Part shown: in pieces, positions 38,400 through 62,100 of the stretch
How the letters are laid out: the number at the start of each line of letters is the position of its first letter
Numbering within the stretch: position 1 is the stretch's first letter
Assembly: GCA_965112155.1 (NCBI GenBank)
Contig: OZ218103.1
Source: Podarcis liolepis
Taxonomy: Eukaryota
Direction: 5' to 3' (one strand)
DNA length: 64,000 nt
Notes under the pieces: generated by a model
Database searches by the model: none
Seen by the model: the letters and a program-made list of their open reading frames with translations, nothing else
Told to the model about the DNA's origin: nothing
Position numbers and translations under genes: made by a program

Positions 38400-42102
<3,703 letters not shown>

Positions 42103-49739: not shown

Positions 49740-50108
49740 CATTCATGAGTCAGTGATAGGGGCCACCTGTGACCAACTCAAAAACACCCAGTCCTGGCCA
49801 TGATCCTGGCAACATTCTCTCATTTGTGGTGGGTGGAGCAGAGCTCCCAAATTTACTGCCCATACATCTCGGGACAAACAGAGTTAACCCCCAAGCCTGT
49901 AGCTTCACCTGTTAACAACTGAGACTTTGCCTGGCTGCAGCTTTAAATAGTCTGCTGCGTATTCCTTCACTCCTTTTAGACGAGGAGAGTTGGGTTACAA
50001 GAGCAGAGATAAATAGTAAAATGAGTGTTGGGTGGTTGTGCAGTTTCGTTCTTCCACTCGTCCACGCCACACTTGGTTTCTCAGGACTCTCCTGAGGTAG
50101 TAGGGAAA
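49740..50108 (+). promoter_or_regulatory. AMPD1: AMPD1 proximal promoter / 5'UTR
   Basis: TATA/MEF2-like CTTTAAATAG 49941-49950 lies ~28 nt before Inr-like TCACTCC (A at 49969). E-boxes CACCTG ~49764 and ~49907, AP-1 TGAGTCA ~49746. Confidence 0.55.
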
Positions 50109-50130
50109 ATGCCGAAGGTGAAAGTTCCAG
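50109..50130 (+). CDS. AMPD1: AMPD1 coding exon 1 (MPKVKVP)
   Basis: gaaaATGCCG...CCAG|gtaggt; 22 nt, phase 1, as in human exon 1. Confidence 0.85.
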
Positions 50131-53100
50131 GTAGGTCTAAATTCCCAAGTAGCCTTTGGCAAGTTGGGAGGAAGCCTTCTTTTATGATGAGGTCGGTGCC
50201 AATAGCCAGACTCTCAAGAATGGATTCACAAAGCAGCTCTGATTGCCTATTTAAGTTATGCAAGGCACAGGAGGTGGAAGGAGAGAGAGCTTGAGCCATT
50301 AGCTTTCCCAATATGAGTACAGTAGTTTGGATAGACAGTCAGGCAAGTGGCTTTTAGGCCACAGAAGTGAAATTGGATGAGACCAGTTGATTCAGCAGAA
50401 CCCAGTTTTGCTGTGTTAAAAATTTATCAGAGGTTGGATAAACTTCCACAGGAGCACCCCTAGACATTGGTGTTTGCCAGATAAAAGAGAAATTAGAGGG
50501 TTTTCAGTAACCTTTAATGGCTTATCATTAGCAGCAAGGTAATTAAGACATGCACCAGGCTAGTAGTCAAAAGGGGGCTGGATTTAGCTTCTCTTTGTCA
50601 GCTCGTAAAAGACCTGAATAAACCCTCCTGGGAACATGTTGCCTTCCAACTCTGTGGTTCTGTGCTGTTACTAGCAGAATAGCAACATGGTCCAAGGAAT
50701 ATAGAACAAAACTGATTAGATTTATTGCATTTTTTGAAGCAGCAGCAGCAACTATCCACATATTAAATCTAAGCCTTTGATAAGCTTAAAAATTACATAA
50801 ATAATCCTTTCAACTTGCTCTTATTTTGTTATGCTCCTAAAGGAACATTTCTTACAGCAAACAAAATGGGTTTAAAAAGTGTTTTGTCGCTTTTCTCTTT
50901 GTCCAATATTTCAAGTTGTTATCAAAGAGTTCAGTTCTCTCCCCCCCCCCATATTAGCATACAAAGATGCTTCCCTTTTAAATAAAAATACTGTAATAAA
51001 TATCCACAGCTCATAATCAAATATTCCTACAATGTCCATGCCACATGAACAGGTAGCCTCAGGTCTGTTGATTTCGTTTGACAGAACGCGAATGGTGCAA
51101 TAGTTTCCCTTTGAGTATGACAGTTATATTTAACAAACAGACCTTGGTTCCAGTTTGTACTTTTGCATGTTTTTTTTTTAAAGGTGAAGTATAGGAAGTT
51201 TTGCTGCTGTATCCTTTCACTTCCTTTGAGCAAGCGAGCTGAGAAGATGAATCCTACTGGTAGACATGCTAATAAATTGTCAGGGGAGGATTGAGCATTG
51301 ATGGACCTGTGCTTTTAATGGTAGAAATGCTGAATAATGCCCATAGGTGCCTACTAAGAAGACCTGGACCACATTTTTGTGTTGCACTTTCAACTGATAT
51401 CTCACACTAACTTTTTTAAAAAACTGTCAGTCTGCACCCCCTTCGGATACAGTGGTATCTTCCATGCTTGGAAACACTCCAGCTAAGGGCTCGTACACAC
51501 TTCTGCTTGACCTGTGATTTGTAGGCATGGATCTGAGCGGTTTTCCTCTTGCCTCGCTCCAGCCCCAGGGAAAACACACTCTCTAGTGCTAAATTGGAGC
51601 AAATGTCAATCTGGAGAAAACCTGAATTGCTGTTTGCCCTGATTGAGCGCAAATGAGTGGAGGAAAGCAGTGGAACAAAAGGAAGTGGAGTTAGGCCCTC
51701 AAACTAGTCTACGCTGATTTTCTCCTTACCAAACAACTGTTCTACATACTAGGTTTTAGAATATTTGTGTGTGGACTAAAGGATTATCTTTTCATATTAT
51801 TACTTTGGCATATATGAAAGGTGGTAATCAGAGTCATGCCCCAGACTACCATATGTTCACAGTTAAGAGTTACCATTTGCAAAGAGAGTATTACATTTGT
51901 AGGCAAATGTTCCAAATCATGCATACAAGAAGCTATATACCTTCAGATGTACAAGCACAGAGTCTGTGAAAACAGTATTTTTTGAATACATGGAGTCATT
52001 GAGTTCAGGCCCTCACAAGCCCCTTCCATATGCTCACTTGTATCCAAATAAATGCATGGAAAGGGATATTGGTGGTGCCAATCCCTGGTTCTGAGGTAGA
52101 ATTTAAAAGACTGCATCCGTCATATCAGGATGTCTGGGCAAGTTATCCCAAATTGCTTTCTTAACTGTTCTTTCTTCCCATTGTAGAGCTGTTCAACTAC
52201 TATGGTATGTAGAGTATATATTTCTGCAAACATTTGCTCATTAAAACTGTTCGTTTCTGTATATAAATGTGGACAACGGGTTAAAAAAAAACTTTAGGTG
52301 CTACATTCTGTGATCTGATTACATTTATTTTATTTCACTCTCAAACAGCAGAGGAGAAACGTGAGTATAACTCGGCCTTCCTTGTGCCGCCTGCTGCTTT
52401 GTTAAGCAGTTGATCATATCCAAAAGACAAATGATCACAGCAACTCAGCGACTGTCTGTTTCTCAGCAGTCATTGCCAGGAGCTATTGATGCATCTGGGG
52501 TGAGGAAGAAAGCTTGTATGGGGCTTGGAGGAAGGCAGGGTGTCATAACAGGACTTGCATGGGGTGTGCTGTCCTCATGAGTCTGGATGATTCAGCCCTT
52601 CATCAAACCTGCCTTTTCAAGGAGCTCAGATACCTTCCTTTGAGTTGCAATACTAGGAAGGAATGCTGGAGCCCAGTTCTCTCCACCAAGTCTTTTACCT
52701 GGGCACCAACTAAAGGCAGGGATGCGGGTGGCACTGTGGGTTAAACCACAGAGCCTAGGACTTGCTGATCAGAAGGTCAGTGGTTTGAATCCCTGCGACG
52801 GGGTGAGCTCCCGTTGCTCGGTCCCTGCTCCTGGCAACCTAGCAGTTCGAAAGCACGTCAAAGTGCAAGTAGATAAATAGGTACCACTCTGGCGGGAAGG
52901 TAAACGGCGTTTTCTTGCTTCTCTGGTTCACCAGAAGCGGCTTATTCATGCTGGCCACATGACCCGGAAGCTGTACACCCTTGGCCAATAAAGCGAGATG
53001 AGCGCCGCAACCCCAGAGTCAGCCACAACTGGACCTAATGGTCAGGGGTCCCTTTACCTTTACAACTAAGCTGGACCCTCAAAAGCACCTGCTTGCAGGG

Positions 53101-56100
53101 AAAAGAGGAACACGAGTGGATGGTTGAAGTTACTTGGTAGTGGGCCCACTTTGACTCTTGGGTTGTATAGTTGGACTCTAAGGTTCTCTCCTCATTAAGC
53201 TCCTGGTATATGACTGCATTTCAACCTAAAAACTGGGCATTGGCACAGATTGCCCTGCTGAGAAATGGCTGTCTTTCTGGGCTGGCTGGCTACCGCTGGG
53301 TGCACAGGTGAGCATGAGCCACATTGCCCAGCAACCCCTGTGCGCAAGGGCATTTGCTGGGAACAGTGTTGCTTCCCTGTTCTTGTGGAATTGAGATGTG
53401 GATCACTGGCTGCTTTGACAACACAAGAGGTCTCTAGGCAGGACTTAGGAGCTCGGAATAGGACGACAACCCCTTATGTCCAAACTTCTAGTCTGGTGTG
53501 AGTGTGGACTTCATTCCCCGCTCAATCCCCATGCACATTGTCTGTTTGGAAAGTGGCATTGCATGAACTTGCCATTTGCATGGCCTCTGGCATTCCCATC
53601 TCATTGTCATGATGCCCTATGCCCTTCCTGCTTATTCCACTTGCATATCTCCTGCTGAACCAGATTACTTCCCTGCTTCCTCAATGTCCACCATCAAAGC
53701 AGTGCTTGCACAAACATGCCCTTCTGATAGCCTACGTGTGTGGATGGATTACAGTGATCGAGATATTAAATTCTTATAGAAAAGCATTTTCTCGGCAGCA
53801 AAATAGTCACCGATCACCAAAACATTTTACTATATGAATTTAATGTATCCAATAAACTAATCCCATTAGTGCAAGGATTTCCATTTGGGCAATGGAACCT
53901 TCCCTCCTCCTCTTCCCCACCCCCATTTCTTCCCCAAATCTGCTCCAAAGAGTTGGAGAAAACTTCAGAACGGATTTAGGGGACGCTCAAAGAAAGCAAG
54001 AGAGGAGAGGTTCTGTTGCACAGTCCAAAGTCCTTGCACTAAGAGAACCACTTTGCTGGGTACCACCCAATATATCTGTTTTGTTAGTCACTGTAATAAA
54101 TATATGCTTTTAATAATTAATTTCATCCTTCCTAGATCCAGAGCAACACACACACACACACCCCTGCAGCCTTTTGTATGATACAGTCGTACCTTGGTTG
54201 TTGAACTTAATCTGTTCCGGGAGTCCGTTCGACTCCCGAAATGGTTCAAAAACCAAAGCGTAGCTTCCGATTGGCTGCAGGAGCTTCCTGCACTCAATTG
54301 GAAGCTGCGTCACATGTTCAGCTTCCGAAAAACATTCACAAACCGGAACACTCACTTTCGGGTTTGCAGCATTCAGGAGCAAAAACGTCTGAGTACCAAG
54401 GCGTTTGAGAACCAAGCTATGACTGTACTAAGGCTGCAGTTCTGGGCACACTTACTCGGGTGATGGTGACTTTTACTTGTGAGTAAACATGCATAGAATT
54501 GGACAGTAAAATTGTAAGACATAGCCAATGCTTGATTCTCAGCAGACGTGACTATCCTGCGAAACACCATAACCTGAAAGGTCTCACACCATCCATACTC
54601 AGAAGGACCTGTACAGATCTGTATAACATATCCTTTCATGGGACTGTACCTGCATACACTACCATTGCTGGCTACAACAAGAAACATCATGCAGTAGTCT
54701 CAGGCTGTTTGAAAGATCGGAGCCTGCCTTTTGGAGCTCTGACCCCACAGTTATTTGTGAGCACTCCTTATTGTGCACCTTGAGATCTCTAAGCAGAAAC
54801 ATCTATGACTGTTGCCCTTTCCTGTACACGTTGCTCAGTGGCAGAAGGGTGCTATCCAGGCTCTGATTTCCACAAAAACGGGCTAAGACTACAATGAGGA
54901 AGCCCAAAACAGGTAAGACACTTCTTTTCTAAGTCACCTGGTTTCACATTAGCTTGGAATTTAGTTTAGATCCAGTTCACAGTCCAAAGCAGGTTGCACC
55001 CACTATGGTGATGCCATCTACACTTACTGGCTGAGAAAGCCAAACCTATCAGCCCAAATTCAGCTTCATTCTTATTCTCATTGCCATGACAGCATACTCA
55101 GTGTAGAGAGGCACAAACATTTCCAGACTATGGAGAAGCGCAGACTCTAACCACCCAGAATCTAGAGCCATGAGTGGATACCAAGAGAAGCTTGTCAGTC
55201 TTCACCTCCATGAAGCATTTATGCACCCCAACACGTCCATGGTTCGTCACTGGTGTTTCACCTTTCCTCACTGAAGCCCTGGAATCTCGCTGTAAAAGGT
55301 TATCAGTAGAAGTACTAAGAATACTATCTGCTTAAAACCCTGCAGCGACATTGAGTCAAAGTAGACTATGTTGAGGCTGATGGATCAATTGTGTGACACA
55401 TGATAAGTAAGCTTTGTAAATACTCTGCAGCCCTGTAGTTGCATTCTTCCCTAGAACTACCAAGCTGCATCCAGGAATGTGGTGCAGGTAAGTCTTCAGT
55501 TTCAGAGCACATGTGACATACTGTTTTAGCCTGTCAGTTCCCTGTCATGCGTACAAAGAGAATGCAGGCATGAGGTGGCCTCTGAGTGCACACAGGGCTG
55601 GTGTGCTGAGTGACGCAATTGATCCATCCTCCCGCAATGACCAAGAGCTGGCCTAGTGACCTTCTGCTTTCTCCTGACAGAAACGGATGATGCCATGCGC
55701 TCCTTCGCAGAGAAGGTCTTTGCCTCAGAGGTGAAGGATGAAGGGGGCCGGCACGAAATCTCTCCCTTTGATGTGGAGGATGTCTGCCCCATATCACATC
55801 ATGAAATGCAACAGCATATGATCAACGAGGAGGAGAGTTCAAGTGACACTGGGAAAAAGTGAGAGTTCTGTATGTGTGCATGCACTGCTGGGATAATGGG
55901 AAATTGGGGCTGAGGAAGGAGGAGCCATGAAAGATTGGATGGGTAACCTAGTAAGGTGTGGCTCAGATAGATCCTGTGCCAGATGTGTGCTGATCACAGT
56001 ACCTCATAATGCAGGCGCCAGATACACTTGCACTCACACTAAGGAAAGGTGGCAACGGATGTGAAAAGAGCTGGTTCCTGAACCTTGGAAGACTTGCGTT

Positions 56101-59100
56101 TATGGGAAACTACAGAGTGGCTGTGGGATGCGGGTGGCGCTGTGGATAAAACCTCAGTGCCTAGGAGTTGCCGATCGCATGGTCGGCGGTTCGAATCCCC
56201 GCGGCGGGGTGAGCTCCCGTCATTTGGTCCCAGCTCCTTCCCACCTAGCAGTTCGAAAGCACCCTTAAGTGCAAGTAGATAAATAGGTACCGCTTTATAG
56301 CGGGAAGGTAAACGGCGTTTCCGTGTGCTGCACTGGTGCTGGCTCGCCAGAGCAGCTTCGTCACACTGGCCACGTGACCCGGAAGTGTCTCCGGACAGCG
56401 CTGGCTCCCAGCCTCTAGAGTGAGATGAGCGCACAACCCTAGAGTCGGACACGACTGGCCCGTACGGGCAGGGGTACCTTTACCTTTACAGAGTGGCTAA
56501 TTCCAGTTGGAGCAGCCACCAGCACAGAGTGCACCATCTGTACTAGCAACCCTTAATCATCAGAGCAGACCAAGTGATTAAGTATTTTGAAGATTAGCTT
56601 AAAGCGAAACCATTTGCTCACATAGATTTTCAAAACTGATGTGGATATAAAACATTCCTCAAGCCACTTGGCTGGAATTGTTGGAAGAGTAGCCTTTGCC
56701 CTATGTTTCTAGGCACTGAACAGTTTTGAGCAGATATATTCTCAACCACATTGCCTTTCTACGGAAGAATGGAGTATTTCCATGTGATAATGACGGCAGA
56801 TAGGTAGCTTTTCACTACAAGCAAGTGTGAAAGCCATGGTCTTATTTGTCCTTTTGATTTCCATAAGTGTGCCTCTTGTCAATACTACCTGAGCAGTGGC
56901 ACTTTGCTCCTATTCCTCAGTGGCTTACTCTGACCCCATAATTTGTATGCCCTGCTTCCTCGTGGAAATGTCTTTAGATGCAGATTACAAATTTGCTGAA
57001 GAAGCTAGTCAATTCAGAGAAGGTCCAAAACCACACCAGAAAGATGCTAGTTCTGAATCTATTTATAGAATGTATAGTTCAGCTTCATCACAAGTGATCC
57101 TTGGGCAGATCACAACAACAACAACAAAAGACAAAATGTAATTAAAACATACCACTATCACTTCCTCTCTCCTTTTTCAAAAACCAATTCAAAGGCTTTT
57201 TGAATTGGAGGAAGAGATAGATCTTTAGTTGGTGCCACAAAATAGGCATGGTAGGTGCCAGCCAGTCTTCAGGGTGCCATTACTGACAAGGCCTTCCACA
57301 ATACAGTATATAAAGACATTTGTATATTCCTTTGCTACCTCCCTCCAGGATCATGAAATATCAGCCAAACTTTCAATGTAGCCAGAGCTATGGGAAGTGT
57401 ATGGTGAACTGACCATGCAATACAGATGATTGCTGCCAAAGCATAGACAAAACTATATGAAATGAGTTTCCATTAGTGTTGCTTTCCTTTTCTTCATCCC
57501 TTCTAGGAAGAAGAGGCTCTTGCGGCTGAAGACCATTGCACTGCTTGTTCCTACTGCGGGAAAGTCTTCGACCAAACTGTCCACCTTAGATGAGGTCATC
57601 TCCAGCAGTGCTTCGTATCAAGCCGTTCCCAAATTCCAGCGTGTTCAGATCACGGGCGACTATGCTGCAGGGGTCAGTAGCTGGAGGTGCCAAACCATCT
57701 CCTGTCATGGATGAGCCTATTCTGCTGCCTCTTCTTCCATTTTGTTAGATGTGGTACTCCCAATACTGCGGTACTCATAATACTGCAACTTGGAATGGGG
57801 GGGGGGAAGGTAACCCTCCTGTTTTTCAGGGCTTCCCTGAATAATAATAATAATAATATATTTAAAAGTCTGTTCAGGGTTGGTACACACCATATATTTA
57901 AAGCAGACCTTACCTGTAGTATGTGCTGGGTTTTGTAGCTCACTGGTAAACTACAGTTCCCAGGTTTCTTTGGGGGTGCTTTAAATGTATAGTGTGTGTG
58001 CTAACTGCAAGTGGGATCGACAAGGGAAGTAAAATAAAGTGTGTTCAGAGAATTTAAAAAAATAGCCCTCTAAAACTAAAATGTAATGAAGTGGATATAA
58101 TCAAGCATTGTGCTTACAGAGCACTTGGAAAATGTGGTACACTCCCCTCCTCCAGCACTGCCTTGAGAGAGAATATCTGCCGGCTTTATAGATGGGCAAC
58201 AAAGGCGCATTTATTGGGCACAAACCCCGATAACGCAGAAAAGGCTTGCTGTTCTTTCCAGATCTTCATCCCCCATACCCCCCCTCCCATTTCAAGTTGC
58301 AAGAGACACAGCCCCGAAATGGAATGGGAGGAGGTGGAGTTCAGTGGGACTCCTGCAACTAACCTTAGCTGTGTCCTTAGGCTAGCTGCGTCTGTGTTTT
58401 GAGTGGCCTAACTTGAACCTGTTGAGAAATAAATCAAATATGGGGGGATTTGCTGGGTCAAGGGATATTGATGAAATTGAAGTGGGAACATCCTGGCGCT
58501 CAAAATAGCTTCAACAGTTGGATCCTGCCATGTCCCTGATCACCTTTCATTGCCAGCCTTGGTGGGTTATTGGAAGACATGGCTGCTGCTGGAATATACG
58601 CTGTACGCTCTCCTTCACTCGAGCAACCATACTGGGCTCTATCCCACAGGCAGCTCCAGGTTTAAGCAAAGTTCTTGCTGTGGCCTCCCTCCTGGGTGGG
58701 CTTCCTTTGCAGCATTGCAAAACAGTGGCCCTTCCTTCCTTCCTTCCTTCCTTCCTTCCTTCCTTCCTAATTGTAAGGAGCAGAAAGGTTCCTGTGAGTG
58801 ACAATCTCCCAATGTCGGCCATTTTGTTTTCCTTACCATAGCCCAGGAATTGTGATGGCCCAGAGCATTGTAGGGAAAATAAAATGGCAGGCACCAGCTA
58901 AATGGCAGCCACCAGAGCTCAACGAGGACAGGCAACTGTAAGTGCAATCGGCCCTGCCAAGGACATGGGAGCCGCAATAGCTGCCATGTGCTGACGCTGG
59001 GCCTGCTTCATTCTCATTGCTATTGTTATCCCCACCACCACCTCCAACCAGGCATGCTGGGAGACGACTCTTTATCTCACAGTGCAAGAGTAGGAAACTT

Positions 59101-62100
59101 TAGGCCCATGGGCTAAATGTGTCCCCCATGCCTCTCCATCTGGTCCTTGGGATTCTCCATAGGCCGTTCCCTCCCCCTACCAGACACATTATCTGTCCTC
59201 AGGCTACAACCTCTGCCAGTTTTGCCTAACACCTTCCATGAGCGTTTTGGTTTTTGCATGATTTGAACTCTGAGAATCCCCTTTCCTTGCCTGCTGTATT
59301 ATTTGTATCATTTATTATTCCTATGACAGACCCTCCAAGTGTCCCTATTTTCCAGGGACAGTCCCAGATTTACAGAAGCCATCCTGGTTTCTGATTTGAT
59401 CCTACAATGTCCCACTTTTCCTACAATGCCCCTATTTTCATTGGAGAAATGTCAGAGGGTTTGGAATAGGGCATCCCTATTTTCCTCAGAGAAATGTCAG
59501 AGGGTATGGAATAGGGTATCTCCATTTTCATTGGAGAAATGTTGAAGGGGAAGTCTCTATTTTCATCAGAGAAATGTTGGAAGGTATGGAATAGGGCTAA
59601 AGTGCCCTTTTGTGGTTTTCAGCACACCTGGGTTTCCCCCCCTTTTGTTTTGTAATTTCTGTCTTTTTTTTATCAGTGCCAGAAGTTTTAACAAATATTT
59701 CCACAGGTGACAGTGGAGGATTTTGAAGTGGTCTGCAGAGGCCTGTATCGTGCCCTGTGTATCCGGGAGAAGTACATGCACAAATCTTTCCAGCGTTTTC
59801 CCAAGACTCCCTCCCAGTTCTTGCGCACTATTGAAAATGAGGTGTGGAAGCCAAATGACGACCTGCTTCCAGGTAAGTACCCAGGCAGGCTGTGCAGGCT
59901 GTACTGGGTGACTGGGCTTGTGGGTGTGTCCCAGAGCAAGACAGCAGGTGTCGGGGTGGTGGGGTGGTGGGATGGAGGGCACTGTGGAGAATTGCATTAG
60001 CTGCTTTAATCTTTTTTTAAAAAAACACCACCACCACACTCCTGTCTGTGCAGAGCTGGTGTGCTGAGCATGCAGAACGCTTACGAACATAGGAAGCTGC
60101 CTTAGACTGTTGGTCCATCTGGTTCAGTATTGTTTACACTGACTGGCAGCAGCAATCCAGGGTTTCAGACAGGAGTCTCCTCCAGCCCTGCCTGGAGATG
60201 GCCAGGGGTTGAACCTGGGATCCACTGCCTTCCATTCGGATGCTCCACCACTGAGCTATGGGCCTTCCTTACTTAGAAGTAAGAGCACAGTGAGAGCAGC
60301 TTTCTGCCGGGGCCAGTGAGAGCCAGGCCTTTGCAAAGACTTGAGGAGAGGAGCTTCCCAGATGGAGTTGTAGAGGTTTGGCACCTCCCCTCCACCTTGG
60401 CTCTCATTCTTATCTGAGCAAGTATCTTTTTGAATTTACTATGAATACTGTCAGGTAGTCAGAGAATCTGAATGACATGTAGCCTTGGCCTTAGGGCTAT
60501 ATTTCTTGTGCTGGACCTCTTTCCAGTGTGCAATATCATGCCATATTTTGGCTAAGCTTTGGTGACTCACCCAGTCTACCATTTTCAACCTCACCCCCCT
60601 GTTTTCCCATGTTACAAAGAACAGCCTGGCCTAAGTGGAGTTCTCATGCTTCTGTCACACATGCTTGTTCATAACAGGTAGGAATATAGGAAATTCCCTT
60701 TTGCCACATCATCTAGCCTGCTGTTGTCTACTGTGACTGGCAGAGGCTTTCCAAAAGACATCTTAGCTAGGGTTCCTTCATACCTTCCTCCATCTGATCC
60801 TTTTTTTAACTGGAGAGGGCTAGAATTGAGCAAGAAACCTACTGCATGAAAAACATGTGCAAAGGGGTATTCTTCTTAGTCTGTACCTGAATCAGACTTT
60901 AATTCTCTGGTCTAGACTTCCATTATATCAGATCTATCTACATACAAGAGGAAAAGGGGCCTGTGAATCAAACGAGGATATGATGTAAAGCAGGGATAGC
61001 CGACAGGTACCCTTGGGAAGCTGTTGGACTTCAACTCCCATCAGCCCTAGCTAGCATGGCCAGTGGTCAGGGGTGGTGGGAGCTGTAGTCCAGCAATAAA
61101 TGAAAGGTGCTGTGTTGGCTAGCCCTGGTGTGAGGTATGAAAAGCCTAGGCACCCGTTATCTTAGGGCTAGAGCACTGACCGTGCTGCTTCTCCTTCTGC
61201 CTTTGAGGCGGAGGCAGGACTTTCACATTTCTGGGAATGCTTTTCACTACACACTCAAAACAAAAGATATGTGCAATTACTAAAACACACCTAAGCTTGT
61301 TATTAGTCACGCAGAATAAATTGGATTTTAGGATTGTGCTACAAGAGGCGCCATCTTGTTAAAGGATACTCATGCAGTCGGGAGCCAAAATTAGCTAAAA
61401 CAAAGACAGAAATTGTAGCAAAAGCATCTGCATGCAGGGGATGGGTAGTGGTGGCGTTCTCTCATGGGGATTTCAGCCAGTCTCAGTCCTGGCAGTCATG
61501 TGGTTTCCTTAGCGGTGTAGAATTTAATTCTTGTAGGTTGACAGCTGTAAGAGAAGCATGCTAAAAAACCCCAAGCCTTTTCCTTTGTCCTTCCCTTGTT
61601 CAACGTTAGTGCACTTTCCTCTTGATTTTAGTGTTCTCTCCCCCTGTGAAGAAAGACGAAGATCCCTTCCAGTCTGGCAACTTGCCTGAGAATCTGGGCT
61701 ACCATGTGGAAATGAAAGAAGGTGTGGTATACATCTATGCTGACAAAGCTGCTGCTGCCAGGGGTGAGCCCAAGGACCTGCCCTACCCTAACCTGGATGT
61801 CTTCATTGATGACATGAACTTCCTGCTGGCCCTTATAGCTCAGGGACCTGTGTAAGTGTCTTGGAGGTATGGCCCCTTTGCGCATAAGCAGGGCCAGCCC
61901 AAGAGATTATTGAAGCCTCAGGCAGAAAATCCAAAGGGCGCCCAGCCTGCAATGAAAAATGTAACAGTGAGCTAACAACCAATGTGCTTCCTTTTATTGA
62001 TGCCCAGGGTTTGCTGCCTAAGGTGGCTGCTGCTGACCTGGGTTTGCCCTGAATAGGAAAAGGGCAAAAGTCTAGCCACCCCAAGGCAGCACACATATAT

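Follow-up and report, generated by a model that had tools for sequence, protein, structure and literature searches.

The AMPD1 gene in the window, a stretch of 64,000 nucleotides from Podarcis liolepis, most probably carries a single conserved 12-nt mini-exon 2 at positions 52349–52360, while the 18-nt, 33-nt and ATG-led pieces that the initial annotation combined with it into an array of alternative N-termini are most probably cryptic, used at trace level or unused. Judging from sequence comparisons, the 12-nt cassette is the only one of those proposed that behaves as a real exon. Exon 1 is spliced to exon 3 with or without the mini-exon between them, which adds four residues, and a tandem acceptor sometimes trims the insert to three residues (five vs. 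four in geckos). The skipped, four-residue and tandem-acceptor forms are all found among database proteins.

The coding part of exon 1 (50109–50130) ends in phase 1 at a GTAGGT donor, is kept in a bird-like locus (L062) and matches the N-termini of the fetched proteins. The identification of the gene as AMPD1 was right. Exon 3 (55681–55858) starts in phase 1 and contains an in-frame Met at 55695, which is the start of 11 of the 63 squamate database proteins (among those listed). Upstream of the coding sequence, the promoter/5′ region (49933–50044) is conserved with L062 (blastn E 8e-7, 73% over 114 nt) and includes an AT-rich box that we take to be MEF2-like. A metagenome scan yielded one locus from 321 candidate stretches. 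L062, being bird-like, cannot test lizard-specific exons. The intron also holds a high-copy, SINE-like repeat (52718–53063) with a read pile-up and loose ends at both borders. The AMPD1 N-terminus lies outside every solved structure, the best match beginning at residue 113. All exons, candidates and motifs described here are on the plus strand. On re-reading of the sequence, all previously assigned coordinates were right, and the 18-, 12- and 33-nt cassettes were indeed multiples of three nucleotides and stop-free in phase 1.

Mini-exon 2 sits between AMPD1 exons 1 and 3 in phase 1, flanked by a CAG acceptor and a GTGAGT donor. It corresponds to positions 5163–5174 of L062, with a score that was reached by 0/200 shuffles, and L062 keeps the promoter, exon 1, the mini-exon and the CAGCAG acceptor and donor of the latter. 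The alignment with L062 and the protein inserts indicate that the sequence and splice sites of this optional exon are conserved across amniotes. Mammalian AMPD1 is described as having a single mini-exon, a cassette that adds four residues (PMC6164516) and is the site of the C34T/Gln12Stop allele (PMC6164516, PMC3026686). The lizard exon is its orthologue, found in the same gene at the same position, with the same length and phase and a near-identical peptide. A re-splicing route reported for AMPD1 is said to require a GT where exon 1 meets exon 2; because the lizard mini-exon starts with CAG, this route is not available there.

The four-residue insert was found in 40 of the 112 fetched proteins that had exon 1, and forms with and without the mini-exon are present in databases for lizards, birds, crocodilians and mammals. 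Among the 40 listed squamate proteins with a normal exon 1, 15 include the mini-exon and 23 skip it; the inserts comprise four residues in 11 proteins, five in 3 and three in 1, while 2 are unrelated. Both forms are annotated as P0107 and P0118, which share two differences from the window and otherwise differ solely by the insert, although both are annotation models rather than observed reads. The inserts in Python (P0148), Varanus (P0102) and Alligator (P0027) were set aside, as they are unrelated to those of the lizard and are apparently products of gene modelling.

The CAGCAG sequence of mini-exon 2 is a tandem acceptor, missed in the initial annotation, from which a 9-nt form starting at 52352 can be made; P0108 is this three-residue form. 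Inserts of three and four residues are found in a lacertid and quail, and of four and five residues in geckos. Lizards, geckos and birds thus share a recurring tandem acceptor, with inserts of 3–5 residues. It is a feature of the reptile and bird copies, set against mammalian AMPD1. The 9-nt form fits the tandem alternative acceptors described as NAGNAG (PMC8055015). Unlike a NAGNAG of pure noise, however, the lizard CAGCAG is retained in the bird-like locus, which is some sign of constraint.

About 100 nt 3′ of the mini-exon, a 12-nt intronic stretch (52459–52470) is identical in L062, an identity reached in 11/2000 and 16/500 shuffles; this stretch is a candidate regulatory element. Two TGCATG motifs (52053–52058 and 52556–52561), presumably of the RBFOX type, are present where they were placed previously, but their reading as RBFOX regulatory sites was rejected: 2.6 such motifs are expected per intron and 5 are present, no GCATG lies ≤750 nt from the mini-exon in L062, and chance is the likely explanation for both.

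A matrix built from 28 local introns (30 were predicted, of which 1 doubtful intron was dropped and 1 junction was not found) was used to score the splice sites. The acceptor/donor scores were 11.0/6.1 bits for the 18-nt, 7.2/9.0 bits for the 12-nt and 4.6/12.2 bits for the 33-nt cassette. Thus, the good splice sites ascribed to these cassettes hold for the 18-nt acceptor and the 33-nt donor, which are strong, but not for the 33-nt acceptor, which is weak, or the 18-nt donor, which is middling. The 18-nt candidate (52187–52204; TAG acceptor, GTATGT donor) has an acceptor as strong as real ones, with an AG-free zone of 44 nt and a tandem AG at 52189 that had been overlooked. Its donor has no counterpart in L062. 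In L062, 13 nt identical to part of its pyrimidine tract lie at a comparable distance, a match that 12/500 and 13/200 shuffles also reach. The acceptor of the 33-nt candidate (55455–55487; TAG acceptor, consensus GTAAGT donor) outscores just 7% of real ones, and at 16 nt its AG-free zone is shorter than those in 28/28 real introns. Record 15 of X2 and record 32 of X4 run unspliced across the 33-nt donor into exon 3, the region is not conserved in L062 (90/200 shuffles reach its score), and a minus-strand open reading frame over the cassette, used as a query, yielded no candidate. The 33-nt stretch is likely a pseudo-exon.

How often such cassettes arise by chance was estimated on both strands of 40 further stretches of this chromosome, 800 kb in all, which may include a few real exons. 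In these 800 kb, 23 cassettes reached the summed score of the weaker candidate, or ~1 per 35 kb, so that 0.16 are expected per 5.55-kb intron. The resulting probability of finding at least two is 1.2%, or 3.2–19% under looser definitions, and these values are lower bounds because the cut-offs were set post hoc at the candidates' own scores. The two extra cassettes are mildly unusual, not compelling. Their P of ~1% at the strictest cut-off, the strength of the 18-nt acceptor, the partial match of its tract in L062 and a contig with one end exactly at that acceptor are points against reading them as cryptic.

Neither the 18-nt nor the 33-nt peptide was found in the 269 fetched proteins or in the 63 squamate proteins (among those listed), counts outside which lie 23/38 and 13/28 members of two squamate clusters, including X1/X2 isoforms of Lacerta agilis and Zootoca vivipara. 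The raw RNA reads of X21–X24 cover the AMPD1 exons in 49900–57800 at ~1–6x and are swamped by repeats; they are too thin to speak for or against trace inclusion, and no AMPD1 joint is among those listed. The contigs of X1–X4 (49900–56120) leave exon 1 uncovered and include no joint of the AMPD1 5′ part, not even that of exon 1 with exon 3. A 2261-nt mRNA contig of X2 stops exactly at 55681, a break that would be caused by a fork between upstream pieces ending in G and in C; among the candidates, the mini-exon alone ends in C.

The proposed combinatorial array, in which regulated 18-, 12- and 33-nt exons would be mixed into many N-termini, would follow the model of fast skeletal troponin T, a muscle protein whose N-terminal variable region is described as being built from alternative exons 4–8 and a fetal exon (PMC11016001), i.e., from several tiny in-frame exons. 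Many combinations are detected as transcripts of fast troponin T, whereas in lizard AMPD1 the mini-exon alone has protein or conservation support. The shared phase 1, the lengths divisible by three and the lack of stops would suit an array, as would the 1.2–19% probability of two extra cassettes (post hoc cut-offs), the TGCATG motifs on either side of the pair of small exons (~0.8%, also post hoc) and the described importance of the N-terminus for regulation and actomyosin binding (PMC6164516). Against these stand the absence of either peptide from the listed proteins (0/63 squamate, 0/269 in total), the weak 33-nt acceptor and the loss of the ATG-led exon in a relative; no joint at either cassette was seen in 8 RNA runs, in which the cover is too thin to count. 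In the cross-species alignment of the intron, made with the bird-like L062 alone, the 18- and 33-nt cassettes and the TGCATG sites were not conserved. An array is very improbable. It is also unlikely, if less so, that one extra cassette, with the 18-nt cassette the better candidate, is a minor exon of recent, lacertid-specific origin with a few percent inclusion and no regulated function. The splice scores fall in the range of real exons, species-specific exons are described as mostly alternative and poorly included (PMC2592719), a pattern that the cryptic cassettes would fit, and other intron-derived first exons are annotated in AMPD1 of close relatives; such an exon is absent, however, from annotations that captured the 9-nt form and obscure first exons.

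Alongside the single mini-exon, the acceptor at 52187/52189 may at times pair with the mini-exon donor, which would yield an exon 2 of 172 or 174 nt with an early stop; this product would be unproductive, or translation might restart at the exon-3 Met. It is unlikely that exon 2 has a regulated distal 3′ splice site at this acceptor, with the long form leading to nonsense-mediated decay or to a start moved to the exon-3 Met. The 174-nt contig record 20 of X3 (depth 3.3) runs exactly from 52187 to 52360, so that its ends coincide with both sites; the chance of this is roughly 2e-4 among the 22 listed intronic contigs, and a left end at 52187 would be expected from the logic of a 31-mer graph if an AG-ending exon were spliced to 52189. 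L062 has a similar pyrimidine tract with an AAG that would yield a 136-nt, frame-shifting exon, and the 11 of 63 listed squamate proteins that begin in exon 3 are consistent with a moved start. But record 20 is a single low-depth contig from one run with no joint, possibly noise or an intermediate of processing; the acceptor in L062 has a score of just 5.4 and the match is of low complexity; and many other 5′ variants can produce exon-3 starts.

The ATG-initiated phase-1 donor (54894–54912; donor GTAAGA) exists as proposed and is annotated as an exon in P0105 of one close relative. The runs X3 and X4 of organism C, another close relative, however, show the changes 54895 T>C and 54913 G>C, which abolish both the ATG and the GT. 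The region has no match in L062 (89/200 shuffles reach its score), and an ATG-led donor this strong is expected by chance with P = 14%. Several other intron-derived first exons are annotated in AMPD1 of close relatives. The ATG-led piece would be a minor, lineage-restricted alternative first exon with a recent, unfixed start.

The literature searched, of partial coverage, contained nothing on AMPD1 splicing in reptiles. It is highly improbable that the lacertid AMPD1 N-terminus is tuned to muscle type or temperature through 18- and 33-nt microexons that were added to the ancestral 12-nt one and are combined with the tandem acceptor and the stop-containing exon 2. If true, such an array would be a lineage-specific microexon code that arose rapidly on an enzyme whose regulation and myofibril binding are governed by its N-terminus, and in lacertids a metabolic enzyme would bear a code like that of troponin T. 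The single mini-exon extends a textbook case to lizards, in which it is already annotated in databases, and is mostly ordinary and already known; of interest to splicing specialists might be the recurring tandem acceptor and a possible long exon 2 that contains a stop.

The region corresponds to the 5' end of AMPD1. Exon 3 (55681-55858), which has one copy in the P. liolepis genome, matches AMP deaminase 1 proteins (101 of 105 candidates), and the exons downstream of it join into a 734-residue frame with 2-5 differences from close relatives; against Lacerta agilis and Zootoca vivipara the count is 17-18, which places the animal among the lacertids. NRAS (38436-42099) is found on the same strand, 8 kb upstream, and peptides identify plus-strand exons of a cold-shock-domain gene, presumably CSDE1, at 13007-27298. 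The promoter region contains an AT-rich, MEF2-like box.

The observations of the initial annotation stood, with all coordinates correct: the phase-1 end of exon 1 is at 50130; the 18-nt (52187-52204), 12-nt (52349-52360) and 33-nt (55455-55487) stretches are stop-free multiples of three bordered by AG and GT; and the ATG-led donor (54894-54912) and both TGCATG sites (52053 and 52556) are present. Its interpretation, that these microexons could be mixed into many N-termini, was supported only in part, for the 12-nt mini-exon, which is optional, occurs in database proteins and is conserved in L062, the one orthologous locus among 321 candidate stretches, judged bird-like by its protein. L062 retains the AMPD1 promoter region, exon 1, and the mini-exon with its donor and tandem CAGCAG acceptor (52346-52351; L062 5160-5165), a score reached by 0 of 200 shuffles. 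Use of the tandem acceptor yields forms of three or four residues in a lacertid (P0108/P0110) and quail (P0069/P0070), and of four or five in a gecko (P0126/P0131). A 12-nt exact lizard-bird match (52459-52470; L062 5291-5302) that resembles an acceptor lies downstream of the mini-exon at a distance of about 100 nt; in the lizard it is followed by a stop-containing 30/33-nt cassette that closes with a strong donor (52499, 10.3 bits), for which L062 shows no counterpart.

Among the 269 proteins compared, which are gene models rather than reads, neither the 18-nt nor the 33-nt peptide was listed (0/269), and the ATG-exon peptide occurred once (P0105). The exon 1 start was found in 40 of the 63 squamate proteins listed, with no insert in 23, four residues in 11, five in 3, three in 1 and unrelated inserts in 2, while 11 others begin in exon 3, 5 use a different first exon and 7 begin further down; of two squamate clusters these figures take in 15 of 38 and 15 of 28 members, the X1/X2 isoforms of two named lacertids being among the rest. 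The annotations of close relatives are sensitive, capturing the 9-nt tandem-acceptor form (P0108). They also contain ATG-led first exons from intron sequence (59054-59089 and 59539-59583; P0119, P0121, P0122), which shows the ease with which cryptic AMPD1 donors reach annotations. Both join to an exon at 59707, and the latter sits in a short repeat array.

Splice-site strength was scored with a matrix trained on 28 local introns (one doubtful intron was left out and one junction was not located), for which real-site medians are 8.6 bits for acceptors and 8.1 bits for donors. Acceptor and donor scored 11.0 and 6.1 bits for the 18-nt cassette, 7.2 and 9.0 for the mini-exon, and 4.6 and 12.2 for the 33-nt cassette; the ATG-led donor scored 10.4. 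The weak 33-nt acceptor has an AG-free zone of 16 nt, below that of all 28 real introns. Unrelated DNA from the same chromosome (800 kb) contained 23 cassettes, 9-33 nt long, with at least the summed score of the weaker candidate, or ~1.8 for each strand in a window of 64 kb. The probability of two or more in 5.55 kb was 1.2%, or 7.6% when each site need only equal the weaker site, and 3.2% or 19% with lengths widened to 3-51 nt. Thus, the cluster is only mildly unusual and often expected in a genome scan. TGCATG, presumably the RBFOX motif, occurs 5 times in the AMPD1 intron against 2.6 expected, and GCATG is absent within 750 nt of the L062 mini-exon.

Against L062, which being bird-like does not reach lizard-specific exons, the 33-nt and ATG regions gave shuffle-like scores (reached by 90/200 and 89/200 shuffles), while the 18-nt region matched only in a 13-nt pyrimidine tract (13/200; 12/500 shuffles) and its donor had no match. 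In organism C, a close relative read from one contig in each of two samples of one study (X3 and X4), both the ATG start (54895 T>C) and its donor GT (54913 G>C) are altered.

RNA-type data were sparse, and among the runs catalogued as RNA none contained the stretch. Raw reads of four runs covered AMPD1 exons just ~1-6x, high-copy repeats dominated read mapping (52718-53063, 56125-56489 and 54168-54420; two SINE-like copies and one other element), and the four contig sets leave exon 1 uncovered and contain no AMPD1 joint, so that trace inclusion is not refutable from them. A 2261-nt X2 contig stops precisely at 55681, which would fit a fork between upstream pieces ending in G and in C, the latter being the mini-exon only. 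Unspliced sequence continues across the 33-nt donor into exon 3 in X2 record 15 and X4 record 32. X3 record 20 spans precisely 52187-52360, joining the acceptor region of the 18-nt cassette to the mini-exon donor; the chance of this span is roughly 2e-4, for one contig at depth 3.3. It is possibly a long, stop-containing exon 2 made through a distal acceptor, although it may be an intermediate, and it does not argue against the 18-nt exon being used on its own. By 31-mer graph logic, its left end fits splicing to the tandem AG at 52189 better than to 52187; exon 2 of 172 or 174 nt meets an early stop at 52242-52244 or 52210-52212. The next contig, record 21, begins at 52360. NRAS-AMPD1 fusions occur in several database models (P0017, P0038, P0161). 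Given these models and the contigs that cover a large part of the AMPD1 intron, cryptic junctions may be supplied by transcripts that read through or stay unspliced.

Fast troponin T offers the true combinatorial precedent (PMC11016001); for AMPD1 we consider such an array very improbable, both extra peptides being missing from the 269 proteins compared. Minor tandem sites are described as mostly low-level and often noise (PMC8055015), and species-specific exons as usually poorly included (PMC2592719). No publication on reptile AMPD1 splicing was found in the literature searched.

Rodent inserts (P0018, P0209, P0212, P0215, P0217) begin with Gly, the exon starting with G, and those of lizards and most others with Ala. 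AMPD1 is reportedly subject to a re-splicing mechanism, and this route may be confined to lineages whose insert begins with Gly.

The demonstrated structure runs from exon 1 to exon 3, and between them lies an optional 12-nt exon that has a tandem acceptor. It is probable that this one optional mini-exon explains the region overall, in which case the remaining splice sites between exons 1 and 3 would be cryptic, the ATG exon would be an unfixed minor start, and the distal acceptor may give an unproductive long exon 2. In mammals, AMPD1 likewise gives rise to two mRNAs through its mini-exon 2, a cassette that contributes four residues, and the N-terminal region influences regulation and actomyosin binding (PMC6164516; PMC3026686).
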